From: Acidobacteriota bacterium
Lineage (GTDB): Bacteria; Acidobacteriota; Vicinamibacteria; Vicinamibacterales; UBA2999
DNA length: 64,000 bases
Assembly: GCA_947482665.1 (NCBI GenBank)
Contig: CANKJK010000005.1
Location: 66,674 to 130,673, forward strand
Direction of reading: 5' to 3'
Shown here in pieces: positions 3,980 to 41,114 of the stretch (position 1 is its first letter; the number at the start of each line of letters is the position of its first letter). A program made the position numbers and the translations under genes. A model generated the notes under the pieces. That model did not search any database. It saw nothing but the letters and a program-made list of their open reading frames with translations, and was not told the DNA's origin.

Positions 3980-3985
3980 TGAAGA

Positions 3986-3991
3986 CTCCTC
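3986..3991 (-). promoter_or_regulatory. Shine-Dalgarno (GAGGAG) for the NeuB-like gene
   Basis: The reverse complement of ctcctc at 3986..3991 is GAGGAG, 6 nt upstream of GTG 3979. Confidence 0.6.
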
Positions 3992-4001
3992 TGGCCGGAA
4001 C

Positions 4002-24395: not shown

Positions 24396-26062
24396 GGCAG
24401 GCTCGGTCCTCTCGACGATAATCCCGGCGCCACGCGGAGCACCGCGGTCTTCGCGGCGGCGACGACTCTGGCCCATCGCCGTCGCCATAACGTGGTCCGC
24501 TGTTCCCGGTACTTCTCCGCGTACCGGCGGGCGCGGTCCGCCTGAACCGCCGCCTTGTCTACCGCCTCGCGCGCCTGACGGGGGTCACCCAACCAGCGCC
24601 GTCCCCACGCGGTGTCCATCATCAGGGCCAGCCCGACCGCCTGGAGACGGCCGCGTGCTGTCACCACCTCTGGCAGACCCGGCCGTGCGGCCGCGACGGC
24701 TTCAACCGCCTCCACGAAACGCGGCGTCGCCGGCGCCGTCAGCCCATGAGGCCGCACGAACGCCTCGACAAACGGCGTATTCCGCCGGCTCGTCGTCCCG
24801 GTGAGCCCCGCGAGCAGTTGCCACGCGTGCTCGTCGAGTGAGCGGCTCGTGTGGAGGAAACCCTCACCCACCCGCAGCAGGTATTGGAAGTGGAGTGTGC
24901 CCTCCTGGTTCTCCCGAAACTCGGGCAGCAGGACGGTGTACACGGGCCGGTCGACGATGGCCGACTCGATGAGCGCGCTGGTGTTCAGCCCCACGACGGC
25001 CGCCGCGTGATACATCGAGTCGAAGTAGTCGGCGCGGGTCCCGGGGTCGAGCGGCGCCGAGCCAAACACGTGGACGCCGGGGAACTCCGCGGCGAGATCG
25101 ATGCCGTCCCACTCGGCGAGGCGCTGCGGATGCGGGCGGACGACAATCGGCACCTCGCGCAACCGGGCATCGGCATGTTCCCGAAGCGAGCGGATCCACT
25201 GGCGAACGAAGCCCGGTTCGGGCGGACTGCCCTTGAAGAGCGACGAGCACACATAGAGCACGAACGCGCGGTCGTCGGGCAATCCCACCCGTCCGCAGAA
25301 GACGTCTCTGGCGAGCGCGGGCTGCCGGTCGAACCACTGGTCGAAGCACTGCGCACCAGTCACGACGACAGCCTCGGGCGCCAGACCGTGCAGCTCGACG
25401 GCTTCGCGCCGTTGGGTCTCGTTCCACACGAGCACGCGGTCGGGACGCACACGGATGAGCGCCTTGCTCGTCAGATGATCCCAACTCCACACGGCGAGTG
25501 CGGTGCGGATCCCGAGCGCCCGGGCCGCGCGGAGATAGTCCAGCTGCGGCGACCCGAGCTCAATCAGCGGTGTCAGCACCACCAGGTCGGGAGCCTGCGA
25601 CGCGATGAACTCCCGGACGCGCGGGGACGGTTCGATCGCGCGTTCCACTTCCGCAACCCTGGTCACGGCCTCCCCGACGCCCCAGCGGTCGCGGGCCCAC
25701 GCCGCCAGCGCCGGTGTGCGCTCCGCCGCGCGCTGCCGGATCTTCGAGGCGTCGGCGTAGCGAGCGTCCTCATAGCGAAGGAAGTCGAGGCTGAACCTGA
25801 GCCCTTCCGAGAGGCGCCTCCGCCGCGTGGCCGGCACCTGCGGAGTCAGGCCAAAGGTCACGCCTGGAGTCTCGGCGGCCAGGCGCTCCACGAACTCACG
25901 GTTGTCGTCGCGATCGACGGCCAGGTGCACGCGGTGCCCACGCGCGGCCAATAGCCGGATGGCACCGTCGAAATTGCGGAAGTACGTGTAGTGCCGCGCG
26001 AGAAAGAGAATCGTCATGGTCCCGGACGGGCATCCCGCCTCGCGGCGTTGCTCATCGCTCAT
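24392..26062 (-). CDS. FamA paralog A1: putative GT-B-fold transferase, family unassigned
   Basis: Track ORF 24392..26374 trimmed to ATG 26062 (ATGA overlap with the B1 stop). By homology an alternative start is ATG 26017 (MTILFLARHYTYFRNFDG). Family blocks: LDFLRY, TPLIELGSPQLDYLRAARALGIRTALAVWSWDHLTSK, VVTGAQCFDQWF, FVLYVCSS, IVVRPHP, DYFDSMYHAAAVVGLNTSALIESAIVDRPV, ENQEGTLHFQYLL and FVEAFVRPHGL. Confidence 0.7.
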   Translation of the reverse strand: MSDEQRREAGCPSGTMTILFLARHYTYFRNFDGAIRLLAARGHRVHLAVDRDDNREFVERLAAETPGVTFGLTPQVPATRRRRLSEGLRFSLDFLRYEDARYADASKIRQRAAERTPALAAWARDRWGVGEAVTRVAEVERAIEPSPRVREFIASQAPDLVVLTPLIELGSPQLDYLRAARALGIRTALAVWSWDHLTSKALIRVRPDRVLVWNETQRREAVELHGLAPEAVVVTGAQCFDQWFDRQPALARDVFCGRVGLPDDRAFVLYVCSSLFKGSPPEPGFVRQWIRSLREHADARLREVPIVVRPHPQRLAEWDGIDLAAEFPGVHVFGSAPLDPGTRADYFDSMYHAAAVVGLNTSALIESAIVDRPVYTVLLPEFRENQEGTLHFQYLLRVGEGFLHTSRSLDEHAWQLLAGLTGTTSRRNTPFVEAFVRPHGLTAPATPRFVEAVEAVAAARPGLPEVVTARGRLQAVGLALMMDTAWGRRWLGDPRQAREAVDKAAVQADRARRYAEKYREQRTTLWRRRWARVVAAAKTAVLRVAPGLSSRGPSLP

Positions 26063-27318
26063 TGATTCCCAATCAACTCGCTCTTCGCGCCTTGCGATCC
26101 GGGCGCCCGGCCAGGACCATCTGTCAACGCCGTGAGCGGGTCGAGCGCGCGAAGGTCCAATGGGGAGAAGCGTCCCGCGCCGGGCAACCGGTGGCAGGCG
26201 CGCAGCGCCACTGAGAGGTGTGCGTGCAGGAACTCCGGGTCGGCGAGCACGGCGGAGGTATTGACGCCGAGCATGGGCGCCAGCCACGTGAGGCTTCCAC
26301 AGGTGCCGACGTAGGCCGAGGCGTGGGCGATGATGTCGGTCTGCGCCGCAAGATTCATGGAGGGCGTCAGCCACTCACGCGCACTGACGATGCGCGGATC
26401 ACCGGCGAAGGCGTAGTCGGCGTGGTCGTCAATGGCCAGGCCGGTATCAAGCAGCACCACGGTGCTCCGCTCCGCCAGCTCGCGGACCATACGCTGCAGC
26501 GCCTGCCGGATGGCCGGCGTGTCGGGCATCGAGCGCGCCGCGTAGAACTTCACCGCCACGTAGGACTCGGGCAGACTCGTCCGCGCGATGACGCCTGGCG
26601 GACGGTGGAGGCGGAAGCGCGTGTGGCTGTCGAGGAACCCGCTCGCCCGATGGCCGGACCAAAAGAGCTTGAAGAGCCGGAACATCAACGACGGATGCAG
26701 GACCCGCGCGCCCTCGAGCCCCTGCGCCTTCACGGCGGCCGCGACCAGGTCCGCTTCGAGCGGCGAATGCGTGAGCTGCTTGAGATCGCCACGCTCGGCG
26801 TTGCGGCGCGCGAACTCCTCCGGGGTGATGTGATCCCACATCTCCACGTAGCGTGACGCGATGCCGTCGTACCAGGCCGAAACACCACCGCGGGACACCG
26901 CGGTGACCCGGGCCGGATCGAGCTGATACGCCGCACTGACCCAGCGGAGGAACGGAATCCAGTAGAGGACTTCGTAGCCGACCTCGGCCAGCCAGGGTCC
27001 GATGATGATCGGCGCGTCGCCGTCAGTGAGGGCGGCAAGCTCACGCTCCACCTGCCACTCGGTCTGGTTCCAGCCGTCCTGTTCCTTCAGTTCAGCCAGA
27101 CGGTGGCGCCGCTCACGCAGAGGACGCCGGACCGCACGGTAAACGTCCTTACCGGCGTTCACCGCCCGGTTGGACACCCCCTCGCGCACGTGCCCCACGG
27201 CGTGCATGGCGTCCTTCATGCCCTCGAACACGACCTTCCACGTATGCCGGACGCGGTTCTGCGCACGGCGCGCCTGCTTCAGCGTCAGATTGCGGGCGGC
27301 GGTGAGGCGCTGGGGCAT
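26059..27318 (-). CDS. FamB paralog B1: basic helical head plus putative GT-B-like core, family unassigned
   Basis: 419 aa. An Arg/Lys-rich head of about 100 aa, then PIIIGPWLAEVGYEVLYWIPFLRW, SRGG, VLHPSLMFRLF, YVAVKFY, PDTP, DDHADY, NLAAQ and AYVGTCGSLTWLAPMLG. Confidence 0.7.
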   Translation of the reverse strand: MPQRLTAARNLTLKQARRAQNRVRHTWKVVFEGMKDAMHAVGHVREGVSNRAVNAGKDVYRAVRRPLRERRHRLAELKEQDGWNQTEWQVERELAALTDGDAPIIIGPWLAEVGYEVLYWIPFLRWVSAAYQLDPARVTAVSRGGVSAWYDGIASRYVEMWDHITPEEFARRNAERGDLKQLTHSPLEADLVAAAVKAQGLEGARVLHPSLMFRLFKLFWSGHRASGFLDSHTRFRLHRPPGVIARTSLPESYVAVKFYAARSMPDTPAIRQALQRMVRELAERSTVVLLDTGLAIDDHADYAFAGDPRIVSAREWLTPSMNLAAQTDIIAHASAYVGTCGSLTWLAPMLGVNTSAVLADPEFLHAHLSVALRACHRLPGAGRFSPLDLRALDPLTALTDGPGRAPGSQGAKSELIGNQ

Positions 27319-27327
27319 CGTCCGGTG

Positions 27328-29979
27328 TCAGTCGCGGGGCACGGCGGGCACGGCCGGCGGCATCGGAAACGCAGCGGCCAGCGCGCGCCTGTGTCGGATG
27401 TCCACTTCCGAAAAGCCTCCGCCGCCGAGGCTCGCGAACACGCGCTTGGCGACCTCGAGGTGATCCCAGCGGAAGCCGCCGGGCTCGGAGTAGAACGTGA
27501 TCGTGTCGGTGCCGGCCAGGGGCGCGAGATAGGAGAAGCCGCCATAGCTGCCGACATAGGCCTCGGCGCCTCGGATCACGGCCGTCTGCACGGCAAGGTT
27601 CGTGGCAGGCACCATCAGGTGATCGATGGTGTGGATGCGGCCGCGCATCTCGCGCGGGAAGTCGTCATGATCGTCGTAGCGGACGCCGGATCCGAGCAGC
27701 ACCACGTCGCCACCCTGCGCGAGGCCCGCTAGGCACTGTTCCACGAACGCACGGTTGTCGGGCGAGTCCGGTAACGCGACGTTGCCGTAGAACTTCGCCA
27801 CCACGTACCGGTCCGGCAACTGGCGGCGAATGGCCTGCTCGGCCTCCGAGGCCCCGATGCGCGCGTACTGCGTGAACAGCTCCACGAGCGTGATGGGCTG
27901 CTCCTGCCGCCAGAAGAGCTGGAAGAGGCCGTACATCAGCGACGGGTGCAGCACCTCATAGCTCGCGAGCTCGCGTGACGCGGCCACACGCTCGGCGATC
28001 TCCTTGTCGAAGCCGGCAAGCTGCACGTGCTTCAGCACGCCCTTCTGCTCGGTGATTCGCGCCTCGTTGCGCGTCCGGAACTCCTCGGGCGTGAAGTAGC
28101 TGAAGACGTCGTCGTAATTCGGCGTGATGTCCTGATACCAGAGCCCGGTACCACCGCGCGACACCACATGCAGGCGTGCCGGGTCGAGGTGCGCATACCG
28201 CTTCGCCCATCGGACGAAGGGCACCCAGTACAACAGCTCGAAGCCGGCCTCGGAGAGCCACGGGCCCACGATGATGGGCTTGCCTGATTCTGCCAGCCGG
28301 ACCACCGCCTCGCGCACCGCCTGCGCCTCGGGCGTCTGGCTGCCAGCCAGCACCTTCTGCTCGCGAAGCTTTCCAACTCTGGGCGCGAGCGCGGACGCGC
28401 CGCCGATGGCTTCGGCCCTCGCGTGCTCGGCGGCCTTGCGCTTGTCGGCTCCGCGCACGGTGACCCGGCCCGGGCCGGCGGCCTCCCGGTCGCGGCGACC
28501 CACAGCGGCCAGCACCCTCGGCAGGATCCGGCCCGCAATCCCGGCAAAGGGGACGCGCGCGGGCGCCGGGCTCGGACGGGAGCCAAGGCGCTCGATGGCC
28601 TCGACGAATTTCGGCGCGGCTGCGACCTCGAGCCCGAAGGGCCGGATGAAGTAGCGCGCGAAGTCGCGGCTCTTCGGATCGGCGTCCACATGCGCCGAGA
28701 GCGGAGCCGCGAGCTGCGCGACGTGCTCCTCGAAACTACGCGCCACGTGCAGGAGACCACCGCCCGCCGAGAGACCGGCTTCGCGCCCGGCACGGTCGCG
28801 CGTCCGCTCGCCCAGCAAATACCGGAAATGGATGGTCCCCTCCTGGTTCTCCCGCGAGTACTTCGGCAGGATCACCGTGTGGACCGGCCGGCCGACGACC
28901 GCCGACTCAAGGAACGCGCTCGTGTTGAGCCCGACGACCACCGCGGCATGGTGCATCGAGTCGAAGTAGTCGGCGCGCGACGCCTCGTCGAGCGGATGGC
29001 TCCCCCAGAAGGCCACATCCGTGTAACCCGACAGATCGAAGCCGGCCCACTCGTCGAGACGGCTCGGGTGCGGACGGATCAGGATCCCCGCCGTGGCGAC
29101 GGCCGGTTCCGGCGCTGACCGGATGGCCCGGATCCACTTCTCGACGAACACCGTCTCGTCGACCGTGTCCCGGAACAGCGACGAGCACACGTAGAGGATG
29201 TAGGGCCGATCAGGCGGGAGTCCAAGTTGTGCGCAGAGCTGCGCGCGTGAACGGCGGGGCGTCCAGCCGAACCAGTGATCGTAGGTGTGCGCGCCGGTCA
29301 CCTCGACGGATGCAGACTCGAGCCCGTGCAGACGGACGGCTTCGTCCTTCTGCAGCTCGTTCCACACCAGGATGAGCCCGGGGTTGCCGCGAACCGGCGC
29401 CTTGCTCGACAGGTGATCCCAGCTCGTCACGGGCAGCGCTGTCCGGAGGCCCAGCGCACCGGCCGCCTGGAGGTAATCCATCTGCGGCGACCCGAGCTCT
29501 ATCAGCGGCGTCACCAGCACGACATCCGGCTGCTCCGCGCGCAGCCACTCGAGGATGGGCTGACTCACGGGCACCGCCGCTTCCATCCACCGGAGGAACG
29601 CGGAGAGCAGCGCACGGCCAGGCTTGCGTCGGATGAGCGGCGCATTCAGCCAGCGAAGGATGGCGCCGGGCGCCCGGGCTTCCGCCCGGGCGCGCAGGTG
29701 ACGCGCCTGGTTGTAGAGCGGGTCGCGGAAGCGGACGGCGTCGATGCCGAGCCGGAGGTGCCGGACACGATCCGCCTGCTCCGTCTTGGCCCGCACTGGG
29801 GCCGTCGTGACGGAAACACCCGGACAGTCGGCCATCAGCGCGTCGAGCAGCCGCTGGCTGCTCGGGTCCTCGCGCTCGACCGACAGCCGGACGATGTGAC
29901 CTCGGGCCGCAAGTGCCCGGATGACGCCGTCGAAGTTGCGGAGGTAGCCGCTGTGGCGCGCGATAAACAGGACCTTCAC
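27328..29979 (-). CDS. Natural FamA-FamB fusion (A2-B2)
   Basis: Track ORF 27328..30171 trimmed to GTG 29979 (GTGA overlap), giving 883 aa. It starts VKVLFIARHSGYLRNFDG and carries all FamA blocks (VTSWDHLSSK, ILIRPHP, ENQEGTIHFRYLL). A basic linker of about 100 aa follows. The last 316 aa (from about nt 28278) form a complete FamB core: PIIVGPWLSEAGFELLYWVPFVRW, VLHPSLMYGLF and AYVGSYGGFSYLAPLAG. Confidence 0.75.
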   Translation of the reverse strand: MKVLFIARHSGYLRNFDGVIRALAARGHIVRLSVEREDPSSQRLLDALMADCPGVSVTTAPVRAKTEQADRVRHLRLGIDAVRFRDPLYNQARHLRARAEARAPGAILRWLNAPLIRRKPGRALLSAFLRWMEAAVPVSQPILEWLRAEQPDVVLVTPLIELGSPQMDYLQAAGALGLRTALPVTSWDHLSSKAPVRGNPGLILVWNELQKDEAVRLHGLESASVEVTGAHTYDHWFGWTPRRSRAQLCAQLGLPPDRPYILYVCSSLFRDTVDETVFVEKWIRAIRSAPEPAVATAGILIRPHPSRLDEWAGFDLSGYTDVAFWGSHPLDEASRADYFDSMHHAAVVVGLNTSAFLESAVVGRPVHTVILPKYSRENQEGTIHFRYLLGERTRDRAGREAGLSAGGGLLHVARSFEEHVAQLAAPLSAHVDADPKSRDFARYFIRPFGLEVAAAPKFVEAIERLGSRPSPAPARVPFAGIAGRILPRVLAAVGRRDREAAGPGRVTVRGADKRKAAEHARAEAIGGASALAPRVGKLREQKVLAGSQTPEAQAVREAVVRLAESGKPIIVGPWLSEAGFELLYWVPFVRWAKRYAHLDPARLHVVSRGGTGLWYQDITPNYDDVFSYFTPEEFRTRNEARITEQKGVLKHVQLAGFDKEIAERVAASRELASYEVLHPSLMYGLFQLFWRQEQPITLVELFTQYARIGASEAEQAIRRQLPDRYVVAKFYGNVALPDSPDNRAFVEQCLAGLAQGGDVVLLGSGVRYDDHDDFPREMRGRIHTIDHLMVPATNLAVQTAVIRGAEAYVGSYGGFSYLAPLAGTDTITFYSEPGGFRWDHLEVAKRVFASLGGGGFSEVDIRHRRALAAAFPMPPAVPAVPRD

Positions 29980-31337
29980 GCCGCGCCTCCCGGTTCCCGG
30001 CCGCTGTTGAGCGTCAGCCCCAGCGGCGCCAGCGCACCGAGATCGAAGGGCGTGAAGCGCCCAGCGCCGAGCACGCGATAGACCCGCCGCGCCACGTGCA
30101 GGTGCACGTTCAGGAACCGCACGTCGGTCATCACGGCCGTCGTATCCGTGCCGAGCATGGGCGCCAGCCACGCGATACTGCCGCAGGTGCCCACGAACGC
30201 GCGGGCGTTGGCGATGATCCGCGACTGCACGGCCAGATTGTTCCGTGGGTGCATGAAGGACCGGGCGCTGATGATGCGGTCGTGATGCGGGAAGTCGTAC
30301 TCGCCGTGGTCGTCGAGCACGAGGCCCGTATCAAGCATCACGAGCGGGTGACGCTCGGCCAGCGCGCCCAGCAGCTCACGGAGGATCCGGCGCGTCTCCG
30401 GCGTGTCCTGAAGCGACTGCGCGGAGTAGAACTTTACGGCGACGTAGTCGCGCGGCAACTCCGGCAGCGGGGCCTCGGCCTCGCCAGGTGGCGCGATGAG
30501 GCTGTAATTCGTGTGCTCGTCGAGGAAGCTCAATGCGCGGTTCCCGGCCCAGAACTGCTGAAAGAGGCGATACATCAAGGATGGATGCAGCACCTGCGCG
30601 CGGGGCACGCCCCAGTCGGCGCGCGCGCGCTCGATGAGGTCGCGCTCAAAGGCCGAGATGTCCAACTGCTTGATCGTGCCGCCGGGACCCTCCGCCTTCG
30701 AGGCGTTGTAGGCCGCGAAGGCCTCCGGCGTGATCTGGTCGAACACCTCGACACGGTTGGGCGTGATGTCGCCGTACCAGGCGCCGGCTCCACCGCGCGA
30801 AAGCACCAGCATCTGATCGGCCTTGATCCGGTAGGTGGCGCGGAACCAGCGGACGAAGGGCACCCAGTAGAGCGCCTCATAGCCGACCTCGGAGAGCCAC
30901 GGCCCGACAATGATCGGGTCACCAGGATCGGTCAGCCGCTCGATTTCCTGCTCGAGGCTGATCTCCGTCCGGACCGCCGACCACTTCTCCTGTACGCGCC
31001 GGCGGCGGGACCGCCAGCGCATGACGGGCCGCCGCAGGCTCCAGAGATAAAGCAGGCCCTTGCGCGTCAGGTTCCGCGTGATCACCGGGGCGTTCCGCAG
31101 CCGCTCCCCGGCAATCTTGAGCGGCTTGAGGAGCTTCGGTCCGCGCAGCTCCGTCTCGCGGGCAATCTTCCGGCCCCAGCGGGTTGCCACGCGGACGAGG
31201 GCGGCCTGCCGCCGCTCGAGGACGCGAGCGCCTTCCTTGCGGACGCGCTTGACCGCTCGACGTGCCTCGCCCACCCAGTGCCGCTTCTGCTCCCGGGCGA
31301 ACGTGTCGAGCCGCTGGAGCACCGACATAGCCGTCAC
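29976..31337 (-). CDS. FamB paralog B3 with about 140-aa Arg-rich helical head
   Basis: Track ORF 29976..31628 trimmed to GTG 31337 (GTGA overlap), with ATG 31328 as an alternative. Head: AREQKRHWVGEARRAVKRVRKEGARVLERRQAALV...RWRSRRRRVQEKW. Core: PIIVGPWLSEVGYEALYWVPFVRW, VLHPSLMYRLF and AFVGTCGSIAWLAPMLG. Confidence 0.7.
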   Translation of the reverse strand: MTAMSVLQRLDTFAREQKRHWVGEARRAVKRVRKEGARVLERRQAALVRVATRWGRKIARETELRGPKLLKPLKIAGERLRNAPVITRNLTRKGLLYLWSLRRPVMRWRSRRRRVQEKWSAVRTEISLEQEIERLTDPGDPIIVGPWLSEVGYEALYWVPFVRWFRATYRIKADQMLVLSRGGAGAWYGDITPNRVEVFDQITPEAFAAYNASKAEGPGGTIKQLDISAFERDLIERARADWGVPRAQVLHPSLMYRLFQQFWAGNRALSFLDEHTNYSLIAPPGEAEAPLPELPRDYVAVKFYSAQSLQDTPETRRILRELLGALAERHPLVMLDTGLVLDDHGEYDFPHHDRIISARSFMHPRNNLAVQSRIIANARAFVGTCGSIAWLAPMLGTDTTAVMTDVRFLNVHLHVARRVYRVLGAGRFTPFDLGALAPLGLTLNSGREPGGAA

Positions 31338-32350
31338 GACGCAACCGCCTCGGGCGCGCCAGCCGACACGGCGGTGAGCCGCAGCAGATCCGGGCCGAAG
31401 CCGGCGAAGACTGACTGGGCCAGGGCGAGGTGAGCCTGCGAGAAGCCCGCGGGGTTCGAGTACACGGCGCGGGCCGGGATGCCCCGGCTGGGCGCGAGGT
31501 AGGCGAAGCCGCCGTAGGTGCCGACCCAGGCACGAGCGCGCGCGACGATGGCGTCCTGCTCGGCGAGATTGGTGGCCGCGACCGGCGTCGGAAGGCCCCG
31601 CTGCGCGGCGTGCGCTTCCTCTTCCCACGCGACGTGGTCATCCACGCGCAGGCCAGTGGCCAGCGAGACAACGGGCCCCTCGGCCGACAAGCCCCGCACG
31701 ATACGGTCCGCGGCCGCGCGGTTCTCGGACGTGGGCGGGAAGGCCTCGTTGAAATAGAACTTCACCGCAGTGAAGGACGCCGGCAGTGCCACCGACGGGG
31801 GTGGCGCCGGCGGCAACAGCGTAAAGCGCGCGTGCGATCTGACCCAGCCCACATCCGCATGCCGCCACCAGAACGGATTGAACAGCCGGAACATCAGACC
31901 GGGGTGGAGTATCTCGGGGTTCCGGAGCCCCTCGGCTACGGCAACATCCCGCACAAGGCCCGCTTCGGACCCGGTGAGGCGTACCTGCTTCTGCTCGCCG
32001 AACCGCCTCACCCGTTCCTGGTGCATCCGCGGCAGGGCATCGGGAGAGAGGAACTCGAAAGCGTCACGGTAGCGCGCGGAGATGTGGCCGTACCACGCCG
32101 CTGGGCCGCCACGGGACACGACAACCAGCTGCTGCCGATCGAAACCGTGTGCCTCGATCGCCCACTCGAGGAACGGCCGCCAGTACAGCAGCTCGAAGCC
32201 GACCTCGCCGAGCCAGGGTCCGACGATGACGGGGCGTCCGCTCCGCGCCATTCGCGAGAGTTCGCGCAGCACCGCCCGCTCTATCCACGTTCGCCAGGCC
32301 GAAGTGGCCAGCGGGCGCAGGGGTGGGGGCAGCAGCCGGGCCAGAGTCAT
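31334..32350 (-). CDS. FamB paralog B4 (short about 40-aa head)
   Basis: 338 aa with ATGA overlap with the upstream stop. Motifs PVIVGPWLGEVGFELLYWRPFLEW, ILHPGLMFRLF and AWVGTYGGFAYLAPSRG. Confidence 0.7.
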   Translation of the reverse strand: MTLARLLPPPLRPLATSAWRTWIERAVLRELSRMARSGRPVIVGPWLGEVGFELLYWRPFLEWAIEAHGFDRQQLVVVSRGGPAAWYGHISARYRDAFEFLSPDALPRMHQERVRRFGEQKQVRLTGSEAGLVRDVAVAEGLRNPEILHPGLMFRLFNPFWWRHADVGWVRSHARFTLLPPAPPPSVALPASFTAVKFYFNEAFPPTSENRAAADRIVRGLSAEGPVVSLATGLRVDDHVAWEEEAHAAQRGLPTPVAATNLAEQDAIVARARAWVGTYGGFAYLAPSRGIPARAVYSNPAGFSQAHLALAQSVFAGFGPDLLRLTAVSAGAPEAVAS

Positions 32351-35013
32351 CGCGGGCCGGTCCCCGCCGGCGCCGTCTCGCGGTCGCCACCGCCGAGCAT
32401 GCGCCGCGTGACCGGCAGTTCGCGCAGGTCGAGCGGCGTGAAGGTTCCAACCTGCAGCGCCGAGAAGACGCGCCGGGCGACATCGAGGTGGTCGAACCGA
32501 AAGCCCGTCGGGTGCGAGTAGAACGCCACGGTGGGCACCCCAAGTAGCGGCGCGAGATACGAGAAGCCGCCGTAGGTGCCGACAAACGCCTCGGCGCCCG
32601 CAATCACAGCGGACTGCACTTCGAGGTTGTCTTCAGGACGCATCAGATCCGTGACGCGGTGCACGCGCGCGCGCACCTGCGAGGGCAGGTCGGCGTGGTC
32701 GTCAAAGCGGATACCCGTGTCGAGCAGCACGACGTCCGAGGTCTCGGTGAGCGCGGCAAGCGTCTCCGCGATGAACTGCCGGTTGCCCGCCGTATCCGGG
32801 AGCGCGCCGTTCGCGTAGAACTTCGCCGCGACGTACCGCTCCGGCAGGGCGGCGCGGACGTCCGGACGGTCCGGACGCTGCAGCGGGCCGTGCGCCGTGA
32901 ACGCATCAATGAGCGTCACCGGGGCGAGCTGCCGCCAGTACGCGTTGAAGAGCCGGTACATCGTCGAAGGATGGATCCGGTGCGTCTTCCCGAGCTTCAG
33001 GTCCGAGGCGACACGCTGCTCGATTTCGCGATCCCAGGCGGTCATCTCGAGATGCTTCAGCCGGCCCCCATAGGACGCCTGCCGCGCCTCGTTCATCGCG
33101 CGGAACTCGTCGGGTGAGCAGTAGCCGAAGAGGTCGACGTAGCGGCTGGTGATGTGCCGGTACCACGACGCCGTGCCGCCGCGCGAGATCACGACCAGGC
33201 GTTCCGGGTCGATGTTGCCGTAGGCACGGGCCCACGCGAGGAACGGAATCCAGTAGAGCAGCTCGAAGCCCGTCTCCGACACCCACGGCCCCAGAATGAT
33301 GGGCTCCTGAATGCGGCCGATGGCCGTCACAAGTGCTCGAACCTCCTGCACCTCAGGCACGTTCGGGAACTTCTCGACTTTCGCCGGATCGGCGCCCTTC
33401 CCCACCTTCGGCAGCATGGTGCCCTGATGGGGCGCGGGCGGCGCGGCCCCGAGCCACGCCAGCAGGCGCCGGCGCACCGGCGCCCACAGCCGCTCGACGA
33501 TCCGGCGCTTCATGCGCTGCACGAACGAGCGGGCCATCTTCCGCCCCAGCTCCGTCCATACCTGCGCGCCGGCCACCAGGAACCATGGCAGCAGGAGGAT
33601 GCGCGCGAGGAACGCCGCCGGGGCCGACACGCGCACCGGGGCCGGCGCCGGTCGCCCTCCAAGCGCCTCGATCGCGTCGGCGAAGCGAGGAGTACCCGCC
33701 TCCTCGCGCCCGAACGGACGGACGAACCCTTCGATGAACCGGCGGCTCTTGTCGGACGTCTCGCCGGCCAGCGTGCGCGCGAGCTGGCCGCGGTGCTCGT
33801 CGAAGCTGCGGGCCACATGCAACAGGCCGCCGTTCACTTCCATGAGGTACCGGAAGTGAAGCGTGCCCTCCTGGTTCCGGTCCGAGAACTCGGGCAGCAG
33901 TACCGTGAACACCGGCCTGTCCACGCAGCCCGCCTCGATGAAGGCACTCGTGTTCAGCCCCACCACGGCGGCGGCGTAGTGCATGGAGTCGAAGTAGTCG
34001 TTCTTGGACTCGGCGTCGATCGGGTGCGCGCCGTAGAGCACAACGTCCGTGAAGCCGGTGAGCTCCGTCGACGCCCATTCCTCCATCCGCTGCGGATGCG
34101 GCCGCACGAGAATCGACGCGTCGCGGAGCGCCGGGTCGGTGCTCGTGCGCACTTCCTGGATCCACCGCTCGACGAATCGGGCCTCGTTGCCCGTGCCCTT
34201 GAAGAGCGACGAGCAGACATACAGGATGAACGGCTTGTCGCGCGGGAGTCCCACGCGTTCGAGGAACGCCTCACGCGGGCGCGACGGCGCACGGTCGAAC
34301 CATTGGTCGAAGCACTGCGCGCCGGTGACGACCACCCGCTCCGGCGGCACGCCATGGAGCCTCACGGCCTCGTCGCGCTGGACGGGGTTCCAGACCGTGA
34401 CGAGCTCAGGCAGCTCGCGGAGGCGTGACTTGCTGGACAGGTGGTCCCAACTACCAACCGCGAGCACCGAACGCAGACCGAGCGCCTTGGCGGCAATCAG
34501 GTGGTCGAGCTGCGGCGTCCCGAGTTCGATGAGCGGCGTGATCAGCACCGCATCCGGCCGCTGGTCCCGCAGGAAACGCTCAAGGGGCTCGTTCGCGGGA
34601 ATGGCGCGCTCGAGCACCCGCAGCCAGCGTTCGAGCCGGCGCGCACCGTCGACGCCACCCAGCCCCGGCACGCGCTGCAGACGGAGCAGGATGTGGGGTG
34701 CGCGCTCACGGGCCCTGGCGCGCAAGTGCGGCGTGTCGTCGTAGAGAGGATCCACGAAGCGCAGGTAGTCAAGCGCCAGGCGCAGCCGGCGCGCCATCTC
34801 CACCCACGCACCGGACTCGCGGCCCTTCGTCCAGCCAAACGTGAGATGCCCGCCGGATTCAGCGGCCAGCCGGCGGACGAGCTGTTCGCCGCCGAGCAGC
34901 TCCCAGCGATCCGCCGACACGTGCACATCGTGCCCGCGCCGGACGAGCTCCATCACCGCGGACTCGAAGTTCCGCAGATAGGCGTAGTGCCGGACAAGGA
35001 AGAGGATACGCAT
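32347..35013 (-). CDS. Natural FamA-FamB fusion (A3-B5)
   Basis: Track ORF 32347..35136 trimmed to ATG 35013 (TGATG overlap), giving 888 aa. It starts MRILFLVRHYAYLRNFES and carries the FamA blocks (VGSWDHLSSK, ILVRPHP, RNQEGTLHFRYLM). After a linker, the last 318 aa (from about nt 33303) form a FamB core: PIILGPWVSETGFELLYWIPFLAW, RIHPSTMYRLF and AFVGTYGGFSYLAPLLG. Confidence 0.75.
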   Translation of the reverse strand: MRILFLVRHYAYLRNFESAVMELVRRGHDVHVSADRWELLGGEQLVRRLAAESGGHLTFGWTKGRESGAWVEMARRLRLALDYLRFVDPLYDDTPHLRARARERAPHILLRLQRVPGLGGVDGARRLERWLRVLERAIPANEPLERFLRDQRPDAVLITPLIELGTPQLDHLIAAKALGLRSVLAVGSWDHLSSKSRLRELPELVTVWNPVQRDEAVRLHGVPPERVVVTGAQCFDQWFDRAPSRPREAFLERVGLPRDKPFILYVCSSLFKGTGNEARFVERWIQEVRTSTDPALRDASILVRPHPQRMEEWASTELTGFTDVVLYGAHPIDAESKNDYFDSMHYAAAVVGLNTSAFIEAGCVDRPVFTVLLPEFSDRNQEGTLHFRYLMEVNGGLLHVARSFDEHRGQLARTLAGETSDKSRRFIEGFVRPFGREEAGTPRFADAIEALGGRPAPAPVRVSAPAAFLARILLLPWFLVAGAQVWTELGRKMARSFVQRMKRRIVERLWAPVRRRLLAWLGAAPPAPHQGTMLPKVGKGADPAKVEKFPNVPEVQEVRALVTAIGRIQEPIILGPWVSETGFELLYWIPFLAWARAYGNIDPERLVVISRGGTASWYRHITSRYVDLFGYCSPDEFRAMNEARQASYGGRLKHLEMTAWDREIEQRVASDLKLGKTHRIHPSTMYRLFNAYWRQLAPVTLIDAFTAHGPLQRPDRPDVRAALPERYVAAKFYANGALPDTAGNRQFIAETLAALTETSDVVLLDTGIRFDDHADLPSQVRARVHRVTDLMRPEDNLEVQSAVIAGAEAFVGTYGGFSYLAPLLGVPTVAFYSHPTGFRFDHLDVARRVFSALQVGTFTPLDLRELPVTRRMLGGGDRETAPAGTGPR

Positions 35014-36608
35014 CAGGCGGCGGTCTTCCGGGGCTTGCCGTCCTTCTTGCTCGGCCCCTTGGATTGGCGGCGGCGCTCCTTCTCCGCCGAGGCTTCGTCG
35101 GCGAGCCAGATCCGGCCGGCCGGCGTGCCAGCCCACCGTAGCGCCAGTCGCGCACCGAGCCGCGCCATGACACCGGGACCAGCGGGCGCGGCCGCGGGAC
35201 CGGACGACGGGAGCGTGGTGATCGCGGAGACGAACCGCGGCGTCGCGGCATCCGTCAGGCCATGCGGACGCACGAACGCTTCGACGAACCGCCGGCTCCG
35301 CGCGGCATCCGCCTCGCCACGGAGGGCGCCCGCGATCTGGATCGCGTGCGCCTCGAGCGAACGCGAGAGGTGCAGCAGGCCCGCGCCCGATCCATCGACG
35401 TCCGTCGACGTCGAGCCGTCCGGGGCCACCGCGGCGCCCAGCAGGTAGTGGAAGTGAATCGTGCCTTCCTGGTTGTCGTAGTACTCGGGCAGGAGCACCG
35501 TGTAGACGGGCCGTTCAGCGATGGCGCCCTCGATGAACGCGCTCGTGTTGAGCCCCACCACCGCGGCGCTGTAGTGCAGTGAGTCGAAGTAGTCGGCCCG
35601 CGGCTCCGGCGCGATGGGATTCCCGCCCCAGACGGTCACGCCCGCCTCCTGAGACAGATCCACGCTCTCCCACTCCTGGAGACGCGATGGATGCGGACGC
35701 ACGAGAATCCCGCACGACGCCAGCTCGGGATGCCCGCTCTCGCGAAGAGCGCGGATCCACCGCCGCACGAATTCCGCCTCGACGGGACTCCCCTTGAAGA
35801 GCGACGAACACACCCAGAGAAGGAACGGCCGGTCATCGGGCAGGCCCACGCGTTGGCAGAACTCGGCGCGCGGACGGGAGGGCGTCCGGTCGAACCAGCG
35901 GTCGAAGCATTGCGCGCCGGTGACCGTCAGGCGCGATGCCGGCACGCCGTGCAGGTCGATCGCCTCGCGCTCCTGTGTCGGGTTCCAGACGATCACGCGG
36001 TCCGGCACGGTCCGGATGATGGCCTTGCTCGAGAGGTGGTCCCAGCTCCATACGCAGAGCGCGGACGGAATGCGGAGCCGCCGCGCCGCATAGAGGAAGT
36101 CGAGCTGCGGCGAGGCCACGACTCCGATGAGCGGCGTCAGCAGCACCGCATCCGGCTGTTCGGCCCGGAGCAGGGCCTCGACCTCCGGCGCGGGGCCGAT
36201 CGCCTGTTCGACGGCGGAGAGCATCCGGCCGAGCCAGCGGCGCAGCGGCGCCCGACTGAATGGGCCGCGCTCGGTCAGCCGCACGACGCCGGACGGCGTC
36301 TTCCGGCGAGCCCGACCCTTCAGGCGCGGCGTCTTCGCGTAGGCCGGCTCCAGATACCGCAAGTAGTCGATGCCGAAGCGGAGGCGGACGGCCAGCGCGT
36401 AGCCGCGGCCGGCCGGGGCCGGCGACACGCTCGTCCGGATGCGACCGGGATAGGCGGCACTGAGGCGGTCGATGATCTGCGTGCCGCCGAACTCCTCGTG
36501 CTGTTCGACCACGATGTGCAGGTCGTGCCCGGCGCGGGCCAGCTCCTCGAGCGCGGAATCGAAGTTCCGCAGGTACGTCAGGTGCCGGGCCACGAAGAGG
36601 ATCTTCAT
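35013..36608 (-). CDS. FamA paralog A4
   Basis: 531 aa with ATGA overlap with the upstream stop. Motifs MKILFVARHLTYLRNFDS, VWSWDHLSSK, ILVRPHP, DYFDSLHYSAAVVGLNTSAFIEGAI, DNQEGTIHFHYLL and FVEAFVRPHGL. Confidence 0.7.
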   Translation of the reverse strand: MKILFVARHLTYLRNFDSALEELARAGHDLHIVVEQHEEFGGTQIIDRLSAAYPGRIRTSVSPAPAGRGYALAVRLRFGIDYLRYLEPAYAKTPRLKGRARRKTPSGVVRLTERGPFSRAPLRRWLGRMLSAVEQAIGPAPEVEALLRAEQPDAVLLTPLIGVVASPQLDFLYAARRLRIPSALCVWSWDHLSSKAIIRTVPDRVIVWNPTQEREAIDLHGVPASRLTVTGAQCFDRWFDRTPSRPRAEFCQRVGLPDDRPFLLWVCSSLFKGSPVEAEFVRRWIRALRESGHPELASCGILVRPHPSRLQEWESVDLSQEAGVTVWGGNPIAPEPRADYFDSLHYSAAVVGLNTSAFIEGAIAERPVYTVLLPEYYDNQEGTIHFHYLLGAAVAPDGSTSTDVDGSGAGLLHLSRSLEAHAIQIAGALRGEADAARSRRFVEAFVRPHGLTDAATPRFVSAITTLPSSGPAAAPAGPGVMARLGARLALRWAGTPAGRIWLADEASAEKERRRQSKGPSKKDGKPRKTAA

Positions 36609-39325
36609 GCGGGCCCCGCCCCTCGACGCGTGCGGCCCGTGAGATGGCGATAGTGCAGGCTGTCGCTGCTCTGGGTCCGGTCGCCCTTGCCCAGCTTCGA
36701 CGCCCGCGGCGCCTTCTTCATCGCCGACGTGTAATCCGTGTCGAGCAGCGTCACGTCTTGGACGACGTAGTCACGCCCGAGGATCGCGCTCACTGACGAT
36801 AGCTCGTCATTGTGCGCCGAGTGCTCCCGGTTGAGGCTGTAGACGCGCGGGCAGCCGGCCTTCGCGGCTAGGTCCAGATAGGCGGCCACTTGGTCGGCCC
36901 TCATCTCCTGGAACGACGCGATGTTCACGAGGAGCGACGGCGCGAAACCGGGGAGTTCGTGGGTCCGCGTGTGAGGCACGAAGACGACGTCGTACTCGCG
37001 CCAGCGGGCCTTCTCGGTCTCGGGCATCGCCGGATCCCAGATGAGCGTCTTCGCCGATGGCCGCACCGTGCGCAGGTAGGTCGCCGAGAAGAGGAACAGC
37101 TCCGGGAAGTCGGTGATGACGTAGGTGCACGGCGTCACGAGCGACGTGAACTGGTACGCGAAGCCGCCCCAGCCGGCGCCGATCTCCCAGACCACGGGCC
37201 GCGACAGGGCGTCGCGCGTGGCGGCGGCCTCCGCCCGGACCTCGTCGAGCATGCCGGTCCGGTGCAGCCCGGTGAGCACCTCCAGGTATTTCAGCGTGTC
37301 GAGATTGTGCAGAGTGCTGTCGATCTCGAAACCGAAGCCTCCGAGCGCCGGATGCTCCGGGACGACGAGACTCCCGCCACCCAGCTCCAGCAAGGCGCGC
37401 AGGCGCGCCTCGAAGGAGACGCGCTTCTCGCCATGGCTCTCTCGGTAGTCGTAGGGCCGGAGCCCGGTGATGTGGAAGGCGTGATGACGCAGCTTGGCGA
37501 TGACGAGCGGCGTCGCCTCGATCATGTAATCGATGTTGCCCAGCTCTTCGGTCCAGTAGGCGCTTGGCGACGACGTCCCGGAGAGGAGGCCCCGCTCGCG
37601 TGCCAGAATCGCGGCCACGCGACTCCGCACGTCGGCGAAGATCGCGACCGGATCCGAGGCGGCGGCGCCCGTCACGATCGCGGGGTGGATGCGCACGGGT
37701 GGGTGCACGACTGGTGCCTCGATCGTCGCGGGCGTCTTTCTCACCGTCTCTGGCTTCTCCACCGACGCGGCCACCGGCGTCGCCTTCGGAGCCTTCGTGG
37801 GCTTCGGCGGTTTCGGCGTCCGCTCATCCTTCGGCGGGCGCGCCTTCCCCTTGGGCGTTCCCTTCGGCTTCTTGCGTTCGGGCGCCCGGTTCACGAGCGC
37901 TGCCACGGGCCGGAGCGCCGTCCGGACCACGACATCGAGCAGGCCGTCACGATCCGCCACGGGCGCCGGCCCCGACGCGAACCGCTCGATCGTGTCGGCG
38001 AGAATCGGCGTGCACGGTGTCTCGATGCCATGCGGGCGGATGAACGACGCGACGAAGCGCCGCGTCTCGGCCGTCGCCGCCTCGGGGTTGCCCAGCACGC
38101 CCGCCAGTTGCCGCAGGTGCTCCTCGAACGTCGCGGCCACGCGGAGGAACCCGCCGTTCTCCGGCAGCAGATGGCGGAAGTGCAACGTGCCTTCCTGCGT
38201 GCCGGCGAAGTCGCCGGTCAGCGAGAAGACCGGCCGGCCCACGATGGCGGACTCGATCATCGCGCTGGTATTGACGCCGACGACGGCTGCGGCGTGGAAC
38301 ATCGAGTCAAAAAAGCCGGCCCGGTTCGCTTCGTCGACGGCGTTGTACGGCCCGCGCGGCCACACGGAGACGGCTCCGAGGTCGCTCAGGTCAGCGTGCT
38401 CCCAGGCGTGCCAGTTGTACGGGTGCGGACGCACGAGCACCGGGATGTCGCGCACCAGGGGGGCGGCGGAACGGCGCAACGCCTCGATCCACCGGCGCAC
38501 GAACGGCAGCTCGATCTCGGAGCGGGCGATGAAGACCGACGATGCCGTGTAGAGCAGATACGGCCGAGCGTCCGGGAGACCGGCAGCCGCGGTGAAGTCC
38601 TCGCGCGTCGTGCTGGCGGTCCGCTCGAACCAGCGGTCGAAGAGCTGCGCGCCGGTCACGGCCACCTTCGAGGCGGGCACCCCGTGATACCGCACCGCCT
38701 CGGCCTTCTGGGCTTCGTTCCAGACGATCACGAGGTCCGGCTGCACGCGCAGCAGCCCCTTGTTGGTCAGGTTGTCCCAGCTGGCGATCGCCACCGCGAC
38801 GCGAATGCCCAGGCGCCGCGCCGCGCGCACGACATCCACCTGCTCGGAGGCTGCGTCGATGAGCGGCGACACCACGACAACATCGGGGCGGTGGGTGCGC
38901 AGGAACTCCAGGACGCGGCCGCTCACCGGCACGCCGCGCTCGGCTTCGCCCAGCACGCGCACGGCGGCGCCCAGCGTGCCCGGGCGCAGGGACCGGATCC
39001 GGTCGAGCCCCTGCAGTGGGTGCGGCAGCACCTTCCGCCGCATGCGGTCCCGGAGCGCGGGTGCATCCGCGTAGTCAGGATGGAGGTAGCGCAGGAAGTC
39101 GACCGTGCCTCGCAGGCTCGTCGCGAGCCGCGCCCAGCGGTCGCCCCGGACCGGCACCAGCCCGAGCGAGTGGACGCCGTCGACGTCGTCGACGCGTGCC
39201 TGCTTCTGCTCCTTCACGTGACTCACCGCGACGGAGACGTCATGACCGCGACTCGCCAGCAGGCGCAGCACCGAATCGTAGAACCGGAGGTACTCCGGGG
39301 ACGCGAGAACGAAGAGCACCTTCAC
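36605..39325 (-). CDS. FamA paralog A5 fused via Pro/Lys-rich linker to a SAM-methyltransferase-like domain
   Basis: Track ORF 36605..39919 trimmed to GTG 39325 (TAGTG overlap), giving 906 aa. Residues 1 to about 480 are FamA (VKVLFVLASPEYLRFYDS, IASWDNLTNK, VLVRPHP, GTQEGTLHFRHLL). Residues 481-548 (nt 37682..37885) are the linker RKKPKGTPKGKARPPKDERTPKPPKPTKAPKATP. Residues about 550-870 contain VVWEIGAGWGGFAYQF (GxGxG SAM motif I) and VNIASFQEM. Confidence 0.7.
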   Translation of the reverse strand: MKVLFVLASPEYLRFYDSVLRLLASRGHDVSVAVSHVKEQKQARVDDVDGVHSLGLVPVRGDRWARLATSLRGTVDFLRYLHPDYADAPALRDRMRRKVLPHPLQGLDRIRSLRPGTLGAAVRVLGEAERGVPVSGRVLEFLRTHRPDVVVVSPLIDAASEQVDVVRAARRLGIRVAVAIASWDNLTNKGLLRVQPDLVIVWNEAQKAEAVRYHGVPASKVAVTGAQLFDRWFERTASTTREDFTAAAGLPDARPYLLYTASSVFIARSEIELPFVRRWIEALRRSAAPLVRDIPVLVRPHPYNWHAWEHADLSDLGAVSVWPRGPYNAVDEANRAGFFDSMFHAAAVVGVNTSAMIESAIVGRPVFSLTGDFAGTQEGTLHFRHLLPENGGFLRVAATFEEHLRQLAGVLGNPEAATAETRRFVASFIRPHGIETPCTPILADTIERFASGPAPVADRDGLLDVVVRTALRPVAALVNRAPERKKPKGTPKGKARPPKDERTPKPPKPTKAPKATPVAASVEKPETVRKTPATIEAPVVHPPVRIHPAIVTGAAASDPVAIFADVRSRVAAILARERGLLSGTSSPSAYWTEELGNIDYMIEATPLVIAKLRHHAFHITGLRPYDYRESHGEKRVSFEARLRALLELGGGSLVVPEHPALGGFGFEIDSTLHNLDTLKYLEVLTGLHRTGMLDEVRAEAAATRDALSRPVVWEIGAGWGGFAYQFTSLVTPCTYVITDFPELFLFSATYLRTVRPSAKTLIWDPAMPETEKARWREYDVVFVPHTRTHELPGFAPSLLVNIASFQEMRADQVAAYLDLAAKAGCPRVYSLNREHSAHNDELSSVSAILGRDYVVQDVTLLDTDYTSAMKKAPRASKLGKGDRTQSSDSLHYRHLTGRTRRGAGPA

Positions 39326-40851: not shown

Positions 40852-41114
40852 GTGGCGTACAGGCTCCCGCCCTCTCACCTACAGGCGGTGACGACGGCCG
40901 TCCCGGGCTGCGGCAAAGCGGGGCTTCGCGGTCAGCCGGAGGGACGGTACACGGGTTCAGTGCGACAAGGCCGCCCGTACCTGGCAATGGTGACGCCGGA
41001 ACGGCAGGCCTTCGCCGGGTCGGGGAGGCCCGATCAGGACAGCGAGACGAGCAGTTGGCGTGCGGAGCACCAGACCCGGAAAGTGGCGGGAGCGGTCATG
41101 CGCAATAGAGGTGA

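Follow-up and report, generated by a model that had tools for sequence, protein, structure and literature searches.

The window analysed here, i.e. the whole stretch of 64,000 nucleotides from contig CANKJK010000005.1 of an Acidobacteriota bacterium (Vicinamibacterales), has a GC content of about 68% and carries, from about 64 kb down to 2.9 kb, a nearly uninterrupted series of glycan-biosynthesis genes on the minus strand. Within this series lie two genes whose products join a member of one protein family, here called FamA, to a member of a second family, FamB, in a single chain. This A-B fusion is a real, conserved two-module protein, and both of its open reading frames (ORFs) are intact. 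The two genes, their modules and their linkers are located as follows, with domain hidden Markov models (HMMs) for A and B built from 41 fusion homologues.

32347..35013, minus strand: A-B fusion gene of 888 amino acids (aa), the better conserved of the two; ATG start, TGATG overlap (1 nt) with the upstream stop
33628..35013, minus strand: FamA module of this fusion, residues 1-462 (HMM, E 4e-249)
33334..33627, minus strand: linker of this fusion, residues 463-560, predicted by AlphaFold2 (AF2) as helix plus disorder
32404..33333, minus strand: FamB module of this fusion, residues 561-870 (HMM, E 2e-161)
27328..29979, minus strand: second A-B fusion gene, 883 aa; GTG start within a GTGA overlap with the stop of 29976-31328
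28558-29979, 28312-28557 and 27385-28311, minus strand: FamA module, linker and FamB module of the second fusion (HMM)

The second fusion, which is 49% identical overall to the first, comprises an A module at residues 1-474 (E 1e-208) and a B module at residues 557-865 (E 1e-150). The HMM boundaries thus agree with an earlier sequence-only reading of this DNA, in which each fusion ORF had been described as a complete FamA module, a basic linker and a complete FamB module; the linkers measure 82 and 98 aa. Both ORFs run in a single frame with zero internal stops, and the GC content at third codon positions (GC3) lies between 0.73 and 0.97 in the annotated frame along both genes, linker blocks included, a uniformly high value which gives no sign of a frameshift join. 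Long plus-strand ORFs that overlap the genes (e.g. 33154-34428) were set aside as by-products of the high GC content, the minus-strand frame having a GC3 of 0.87-0.88. Hence, it is virtually excluded that faulty assembly or a frameshift in this contig produced the fusions: apart from the unbroken reading frame and the uniform GC3, the linker is conserved and full-length homologues exist in more than 120 clusters and in 77 genomes from many studies and sequencing platforms. Nothing was found in favour of an artefact, and apparent split forms are seen only in other assemblies, where they are themselves error-like.

A search with the 888-aa protein returned 3,474 matches. The best 120 clusters all align over 97-100% of the query with 53-99% identity, and their length is about 880-920 aa, with one exception of 1,406 aa. 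None contains a Pfam domain, those that bear a name are called 'hypothetical', and Acidobacteria or Vicinamibacterales are their source. Scanning one genome per species yielded 77 fusion loci, mostly in metagenome-assembled genomes (MAGs) of Vicinamibacterales, and the window fusion is 88% identical to those of two of these loci (L001 and L003). The fusion is also carried by Tistlia consotensis (L068), an alphaproteobacterium in culture, and by MAGs with the labels Alphaproteobacteria, Deltaproteobacteria and Nitrospinota. The Vicinamibacterales MAG and metagenome records retrieved stem mainly from soil and groundwater samples, and a tblastn search against plasmids gave no match. Locus-carrying contigs (L002, L050 and L065), one of them 87% identical to the window fusion, bear the label 'uncultured Bifidobacteriaceae', and further ones go under Gammaproteobacteria, Gemmatimonadaceae or Acidimicrobiia; all of these MAG contigs probably originate from Vicinamibacterales and were binned or labelled wrongly.

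Neither A nor B nor the fusion proteins reached the threshold of any Pfam family, searching the PDB by sequence, whether with individual proteins or with the profile of 41 sequences, gave nothing meaningful for A or B, and a scan of NCBIfam returned only a weak BFO_1060 signal for FamA and nothing for FamB. The AF2 model of the fusion, calculated from the 41-sequence alignment, has a mean predicted local distance difference test score (pLDDT) of 80, with residues 1-460 (mostly pLDDT 85-97) and 553-870 well folded. Its overall predicted template modelling score (pTM) is 0.58; the relative placement of the A and B modules is thus not confidently predicted, and the model contains no confident interface. 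Compared by Foldseek with the PDB, the predicted FamA structure gave 289 matches at E<=1e-3, the top 50 of which are all proteins of the GT-B glycosyltransferase (GT) fold; the best ones are UDP-GlcNAc 2-epimerases, GT1 enzymes, MshA and WaaG (E down to 5e-10; template modelling score (TM) 0.6-0.69, target-normalised). On the basis of this model, FamA is assigned to the GT-B fold. In 250 A domains the elements SWDxLxxK, WNxxQxxE, TGAxxxD, E277, RPHP (304-307), E360, Q381 and H386 are invariant. Hereby, R304-P305-H306-P307, conserved to 98-100%, follows the strand 300-304 of the C-terminal half, so that FamA carries the HP motif of the BFO_1060 family and of bacterial sialyltransferase-like enzymes.

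The BFO_1060 family (NF046086) weakly matches 39 of the 41 fusions (best E 2e-9, about 27 bits) and also stand-alone A proteins. The A modules of the window score 20-27 bits, the match in fusion 32347-35013 covering residues 202-289, and FamA does not reach the curated cut-off of 200 bits. By sequence, FamA is therefore a remote relative of this family, not a member. BFO_1060 is the strain 92A2 homologue of Tannerella forsythia Tanf_01245 and TFUB4_00887, whose knock-outs lose the terminal pseudaminic (Pse) or legionaminic (Leg) acid derivative and which have been described as type-B, TagB-like enzymes with a sialyltransferase HP motif (PMC5420450). Among the 41 fusions, sub-threshold Pfam matches comprise Epimerase_2 (4/41), Glyphos_transf (1/41) and GT4-type families (8/41); the TagB/TagF family PF04464 stays below threshold, with a single fusion that reaches 12.6 of the required 22.1 bits (E 0.065).

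For FamB we modelled the stand-alone protein 31334-32350 (pLDDT 90, pTM 0.89), whose top Foldseek matches are all GT-B proteins. Its best matches are the GT9 heptosyltransferases TibC, WaaF and WaaC (E 3e-5, TM ~0.4). FamB is thus predicted to have a GT-B fold as well, the B module of the fusion being assigned via this modelled paralogue. Invariant in 251 B domains are GPWxxExGxE (575-584), RGG, K653, D771-x-H773, NLxxQ, TxG and H842. Since invariant polar residues are found in about 250 sequences of each family, A and B both look catalytic by sequence. The threshold of PF01075 (Glyco_transf_9) was not reached; matches below it occur in 2 of 42 stand-alone B proteins (best E 0.14) and in 5 of 41 fusions (best E 0.015).

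The two fusions are embedded in an array of further FamA and FamB genes, all on the minus strand, which extends into a group of glycosyltransferase genes of family TIGR04372 (FamC):

24392..26062, minus strand: stand-alone FamA with a 92-aa basic C-terminal tail (HMM); ATGA overlap with the stop of the B gene 26059-27318
26059..27318, minus strand: stand-alone FamB whose basic N-terminal head of ~97 aa looks helical on inspection (HMM)
29976..31328, minus strand: stand-alone FamB with a strongly basic head of ~130 aa, lysine plus arginine fraction (K+R) 0.28 (HMM; start codon inferred)
31334..32350, minus strand: stand-alone FamB, 338 aa, short head, modelled separately as given above
35013..36608, minus strand: stand-alone FamA, 531 aa, with a 59-aa basic tail (HMM)
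36605..39325, minus strand: FamA, a Pro/Lys-rich spacer and a NanM-type sugar O-methyltransferase (HMM; TIGR04371, E 2.5e-19)
39325..40878, minus strand: stand-alone FamA (HMM)
41278..42555, minus strand: stand-alone FamB with a coiled-coil-looking head of ~110 aa; GTGA overlap with the Wzm stop (start codon inferred)
46506..48365, minus strand: stand-alone FamA with a 153-aa hydrophobic and polybasic tail, among FamC genes (HMM)

Self-BLAST and the domain HMMs agree on a census of seven FamA and six FamB modules in the window, as had been counted before from the letters, each fusion contributing one A and one B. Five A genes, one of them (36605-39325) carrying the methyltransferase, and four B genes stand alone. 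With E-values of 1e-80 to 4e-249 over these modules, chance is no issue for the census. Adjacent genes of the array meet in GTGA, ATGA or TGATG overlaps, which indicates a translationally coupled operon.

The sequence-only reading had taken the joint occurrence of separate genes and of two independent fusions as Rosetta-stone evidence. The occurrence of both forms is upheld by the census and by the genome counts: the 77 loci and the window together hold 185 A-only, 175 B-only, 82 A-B and 2 A-A ORFs and 0 simple B-A ones. The independence of the two fusions is not. Within the window, their B domains are mutual closest relatives, with 51% identity to each other versus 35-42% to other B domains, and in a neighbour-joining tree of 251 B domains one bipartition contains 98% of the fused ones; the two fusions are thus not independent evidence. 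In the A-domain tree, 86% of fused A domains fall in one bipartition of 95% purity, with both window fusions inside. By sequence, the window fusions are paralogues that descend from essentially one ancient A-B fusion by later duplication. Nine stand-alone sequences lie within the fused-B bipartition, comprising six truncations at contig ends and three overlapping-frame ORFs. The three seemingly split orthologues, in L062, L067 and L077, were rejected because their parts are overlapping-frame ORFs and other family genes there are fragmented too; they are presumably sequencing errors of error-prone long-read MAGs. Hence, no genuine split form of the fused B clade was found among the loci and the 251-domain tree examined, although both families as such exist in fused and in separate states.

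Rosetta-stone inference, the derivation of a functional link from domains that are separate in some genes and fused in others, is said to go back to Marcotte and to Enright in 1999. The present case resembles it in that members of the A and B families are separate in some genes and fused in others. It differs in that the fused and the separate forms are paralogues inside one operon, and in that A-A and B-B fusions occur too. Because the separate forms are paralogues and the fused lineage is never split, the inference holds only in its loose form, which asks for members of two families in both states, and not in the strict one, which asks for the same orthologues fused and separate. The A-B fusion therefore adds little evidence beyond the co-location of the genes in an operon.

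Other combinations of the modules were found as well. An HMMER search of 1.84 billion representatives with a B profile returned 1,671 B-family representatives at the 50% identity level, the best 150 of which comprise 116 B-only, 30 A-B, 2 B-B, 1 B-A-B and 1 A-B-A proteins. On 12 metagenome contigs A-A proteins of about 1,080 aa contain two full A domains some 44 aa apart (L103, L092, L102, L128, L091, L140, L138, L099, L097, L133, L132 and L122). The order A-B-A was seen in L145, L148 and P0266, B-A-B in P0243, and B-B in L120, P0241 and P0247. The NanM-type O-methyltransferase stands by itself in 26 related ORFs and is joined to A in 5; unlike A-B, this pair occurs both split and fused. Together, the A-A, B-B, A-B-A, B-A-B and A-methyltransferase fusions argue for modular enzymes of one pathway and not for a specific A:B interface. 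The numbers of A and B modules lie within one of each other in 8 of 10 fully contained arrays, but a strict 1:1 stoichiometry was rejected in view of three counter-examples (L064, L103 and L092): L064 has five A modules and its only B is the fused one, and L103 has about seven A modules and no B in 17 kb, adjoining Wzm/Wzt. Of 27 metagenome loci of at least 12 kb chosen from the A side, 8, L103 among them, are without any B, a proportion softened by their limited flanks.

The linkers had been likened in composition to the heads of stand-alone B proteins and the tails of stand-alone A proteins. This holds: K+R is 0.21 (net charge +10) in the 82-aa linker of 27328-29979 and 0.17 (net +11) in the 98-aa linker of 32347-35013, compared with 0.21-0.28 in the stand-alone B heads, 0.21-0.24 in the stand-alone A tails and about 0.10-0.14 in the domain interiors of the window; over 78 genomes, linkers have a median of 0.22 and A tails one of 0.23, compared with 0.13 in domain controls. 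The likeness is one of composition and not of homology. A linker HMM matches the fusions, truncated versions of them and two A genes recently copied from the A part of a fusion, and it finds no homology in ordinary A tails or B heads; the idea of tails, heads and linker as one conserved domain was therefore rejected. In 32347-35013 the linker consists of a hydrophobic LLLPWF segment (maximum KD19 1.78), a polybasic helix and the motif P-K-[VL]-G-K-x-x-D-P-A-K; AF2 predicts a single helix from 464 to 520 (57 residues, pLDDT 58-74) and disorder from 522 to 550. The same layout, i.e. a Pro-containing hydrophobic stretch (consensus ARxLLLPWLAxA), a polybasic helix and TPK[LV]GKxRDPAK, is conserved in 81 fusions, and a stretch with KD19 >1.6 is present in 44% of linkers versus 3% of control blocks. 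The TPK[LV]GKxRDPAK motif itself (33370-33420, residues ~533-546) lies in the part that AF2 predicts as disordered; within this region P535, K545 and E554 never vary and K536, D542 and P543 hardly do, and by its sequence the motif resembles a candidate docking peptide.

Downstream of the A/B array and within it lie genes for the supply and export of a nonulosonic-acid (sialic-acid-like) glycan:

20554..21258, minus strand: cytidine monophosphate (CMP)-sugar synthetase, directly downstream of the A/B array
21259..22185, minus strand: methyltransferase, downstream of the array
22213..23367, minus strand: NeuC, downstream of the array
23364..24488, minus strand: NeuB, directly downstream of the array
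42552..43445, minus strand: ABC-2 permease of the Wzm/KpsM type, within the array
43432..44706, minus strand: ATPase of the Wzt/TagH type, within the array

Further down from the CMP-sugar synthetase follow a second NeuB, two DegT aminotransferases, dehydratases and two GT2 genes; five glycosyltransferase paralogues of family TIGR04372 are found upstream of the array, together with further methyltransferases and a LegB-like dehydratase. This setting recurs. Of 48 related loci of at least 20 kb, other phyla included, 47 have a NeuB homologue no more than 10 kb from the fusion, and within the same distance NeuC is found in 38 of the 48 and the CMP-synthetase in 39. Wzm or Wzt lies within 10 kb in 9-10 of the 48; the exporter of the window is about 7.5 kb from the nearer fusion, so that two putative GT modules in one chain are placed near Wzm/Wzt (KpsM/KpsT). 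Metagenome loci chosen from the A side have the same neighbours.

Taken together, we consider it probable, with no great certainty, that the A-B proteins are bifunctional GT-B glycosyltransferases in a modular line that builds an exported nonulosonic-acid glycan. In such a line FamA and FamB would be interchangeable modules of a multi-enzyme assembly, which would put the glycan together on the cytoplasmic face of the membrane and hand the product to the Wzm/Wzt transporter of the ATP-binding cassette (ABC) type for export. Each A-B enzyme would carry out two glycosyl transfers, probably consecutive ones. FamA most likely uses a CMP-activated nonulosonic acid; this proposal is based on the HP motif, on the remote likeness to the Tannerella Pse/Leg transferases and on the presence of NeuB in nearly every locus. 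For FamB, the likeliest assignment is an inverting enzyme of GT9-like character that transfers another sugar. The helical segments, which are basic and in part hydrophobic, would hold the otherwise soluble enzymes at the anionic surface of the inner membrane, next to the lipid-linked acceptor, and may also drive oligomerisation. The analyses described above show how the fusion is built, how well it is conserved, which folds its modules adopt, which genes surround it and that it has a single origin; donor sugars, order of transfer and anchoring at the membrane are what we infer from them. The abundance of A, B and C paralogues would suggest a longer defined sequence rather than a simple disaccharide repeat.

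Several observations weigh against this interpretation. Every homologue is annotated as hypothetical, and both families are known from sequence and models alone. The BFO_1060 match of FamA is far below the cut-off (~27 versus 200 bits) and aligns only about 90 residues, the top fold matches of FamA are generic GT-B proteins and not sialyltransferases, TagF or Kdo transferases, and the fold match between FamB and GT9 is weak, with a TM of ~0.4. Four to seven A paralogues per locus are many if each adds a nonulosonic acid. An initiating phosphoglycosyl transferase was not recognised among the window ORFs scanned. As to the proposed anchor, the maximal helical hydrophobic moment, with a median of 0.63 in the linkers, hardly exceeds the 0.56 of controls and does not set the two apart.

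The sequence-only reading had proposed that A and B act as a physical complex or as a bifunctional unit, with the basic helical segment as the tether. The bifunctional unit, or at least a functional link, is supported by the conserved fusion, the invariant residues and the coupled operons; a specific A:B complex is not, in view of the promiscuous fusions, the variable stoichiometry and the pTM of 0.58. In its strongest form, such a complex would be an obligate A:B heterocomplex in the manner of GtfA/GtfB or Alg13/Alg14, in which one partner is perhaps catalytic and the other binds the acceptor, the basic helix serves as docking element or tether and the fusion makes the complex covalent. The co-arrayed A and B genes with their nearly matched counts (within one in 8/10 contained arrays), the predominance of A-B among fusions (82 of 84 multi-module ORFs in the genome loci), the usual position of the fusion at the border between a block of A genes and a block of B genes, and the compositional likeness of tails and heads to the linker would all fit this. 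However, A and B are each predicted to form a full GT-B fold of two domains, and each has invariant polar residues of its own; five A modules stand against one B in L064 and about seven against none over the 17 kb of L103; A-A and B-B fusions occur; ordinary tails and heads are not homologous in sequence to the linker; no genuinely separate member of the fused B clade turned up; and the fusion model shows no confident interdomain packing. We therefore regard an obligate heterocomplex as unlikely: a fusion that is conserved, modular and promiscuous speaks for a shared pathway and a bifunctional enzyme. The tether fares no better, because comparable basic segments occur on the free ends of stand-alone proteins, where they tether nothing. 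This, and the fact that enzymes of an ABC-transporter pathway must reach a lipid-linked acceptor at the inner membrane face, leads us to the view that the basic segments most likely are mainly elements for membrane association or oligomerisation and not primarily a connection between A and B.

The helix between the modules could also be read as part of a chain-length ruler of the WbbB/WbdD kind, in which an oligomeric coiled coil spaces a chain-terminating nonulosonic-acid transferase A from a chain-extending B, so that the fusion sets the length of the glycan and couples termination to ABC export; the WbbB precedent is reportedly due to Williams et al. in PNAS in 2017. An uninterrupted helix of 57 residues (464-520) is indeed predicted between the modules, some B heads look like coiled coils (e.g. 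41278-42555), and the locus, one of the ABC-transporter type, contains many methyltransferases, enzymes that typically act as terminators. The helix, however, has a pLDDT of only 58-74, starts with a hydrophobic, Pro-containing segment and shows a polybasic pattern instead of heptads, the linker of the second window fusion is shorter and of another kind, and the C-terminal extension of Wzt shows no recognisable Wzt_C carbohydrate-binding domain. We consider a ruler quite improbable. Finally, FamA might not be a glycosyltransferase in the narrow sense but a phosphotransferase similar to TagB/TagF or a GT-B enzyme of the epimerase kind, and its product a teichoic-acid-like polymer. UDP-GlcNAc 2-epimerases are among the top fold matches of FamA, Epimerase_2 (4/41) and Glyphos_transf (1/41) appear below threshold, the BFO_1060 family is itself described as TagB-like, and the Wzt ATPase is TagH-like. 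Yet these Pfam matches are all sub-threshold, the window ORFs scanned include no gene for CDP-glycerol or CDP-ribitol synthesis, the CMP-nonulosonic-acid pathway is nearly always linked, and a genuine NeuC epimerase is already present at 22213-23367; we judge this possibility to be remote.

The fusion as such is ordinary, two-module glycosyltransferases being well known. By analogy, the closest functional counterpart of A-B would be the hexosyl-/sialyl-transferases of Neisseria meningitidis serogroups W and Y (NmW/Y); by sequence A-B stands outside those families. These capsule polymerases unite a hexosyltransferase and a sialyltransferase in one chain (PMC8600345). Like A-B they have two GT modules per polypeptide and use a CMP-nonulosonic acid and a nucleoside diphosphate hexose, the donors of A-B being inferred. 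Unlike A-B they share no sequence family with it (GT4-type Pfam matches are sub-threshold and found in only 8 of 41 fusions), their module order and linker differ, and each acts as a lone polymerase, whereas the A-B fusion is one player among 13 A/B modules of its locus. The NmW/Y locus likewise contains sialic-acid synthesis genes and uses ABC-transporter export.

The BFO_1060 family is the only named one with a consistent likeness to FamA, and the HP motif, the type-B glycosyltransferase character and the nonulosonic-acid gene context are common to both. They differ in the extent of this likeness (~27 versus 200 bits, with positions ~105-189 of 365 of the profile aligned) and in setting, the Tannerella enzymes capping a protein O-glycan and the window locus having an ABC exporter instead. 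The GT9 heptosyltransferases WaaC, WaaF and TibC, the best structural matches of FamB, resemble it, as far as its sequence can be read, in an acidic residue after strand beta-1, a Lys after the first strand of the C-domain and a G-[ST]-x-G-G turn; unlike them, FamB matches only at E 3e-5 and TM ~0.4, stays below the Pfam threshold and lies in a window in which no ADP-heptose pathway was seen. WbdA, WbbB, KpsC and the Cps-type polymerases are examples of multi-module enzymes of O-antigen or capsule assembly. With these the A-B proteins would have in common tandem GT modules that are variously joined, the cytoplasmic membrane face as the site of action and a lipid-linked acceptor; they differ in that the A and B modules come from two families with no Pfam or NCBIfam assignment and in the unusual paralogy of 7 A, 6 B and 5 TIGR04372 genes in this single locus. 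A multi-domain capsule polymerase family is also described in PMC5974469.

The main value of the locus thus lies in a lead to new glycosyltransferase families associated with nonulosonic acids. Transferases for bacterial nonulosonic acids are poorly known, with few families implicated (Maf proteins, the Tannerella enzymes), and knowledge of them has been called scarce (PMC5420450). FamA and FamB are sizeable hypothetical families outside Pfam and NCBIfam which are tied to nonulosonic-acid biosynthesis by fold, motif and neighbourhood. Literature queries on TIGR04372, on Vicinamibacter with nonulosonic acid and on Acidobacteria with nonulosonic and glycosyltransferase returned nothing. If A is a nonulosonic-acid transferase, it would represent a new glycosyltransferase family with possible use as a glyco-engineering tool, and it would point to sialic-acid-like surface polymers in soil Acidobacteria. 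A more far-reaching proposal, which we put forward tentatively and consider doubtful as a whole, is that FamA represents a large new group of transferases for nonulosonic acids of the Leg/Pse/Neu type and FamB another new family, which is GT9-like, and that the two together with TIGR04372 form a line of 13-18 enzymes for a long, defined, heavily methylated and nonulosonic-acid-rich surface glycan in Vicinamibacteria and scattered phyla, the linker with its hydrophobic hairpin, polybasic helix and PK[VL]GKxxDPAK motif being a dedicated docking element for membrane or exporter.

Some further genes of the window deserve mention. The five TIGR04372 paralogues, at 45163-46458, 48362-49636, 49646-50902, 50899-52353 and 60953-62128 on the minus strand, are 30-43% identical to each other, with an E-value of 1e-28 for 45163-46458; with A and B they bring the locus to about 18 GT modules. 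The possibility that FamB and FamC form one family was dropped, given a profile-profile probability of 0.4% and an E-value of 0.17. Several minus-strand ORFs (11229-12728, 15162-16706, 4002-4955 and 18996-19703) have no family match, and 8497-9915 has a sub-threshold match to DUF4149. For the 947-aa ORF 52434-55277 on the minus strand, neither Pfam nor NCBIfam nor the PDB gave a match; 15 of the 77 related genome loci contain a homologue, as do some metagenome loci, where it adjoins FamC, so that its product appears by sequence to be a conserved component of the locus. In the Wzt/TagH-type ATPase 43432-44706 a C-terminal extension of about 170 aa without a Pfam Wzt_C match may be a divergent domain that recognises the glycan terminus. 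Finally, the occurrence of two NeuB paralogues (2900-4087 and 23364-24488), two DegT aminotransferases and a LegB-like dehydratase (5889-7112, 9912-11048 and 56469-57617) suggests that more than one nonulosonic acid, e.g. one of the Neu/Kdn and one of the Leg/Pse type, is made from the locus.

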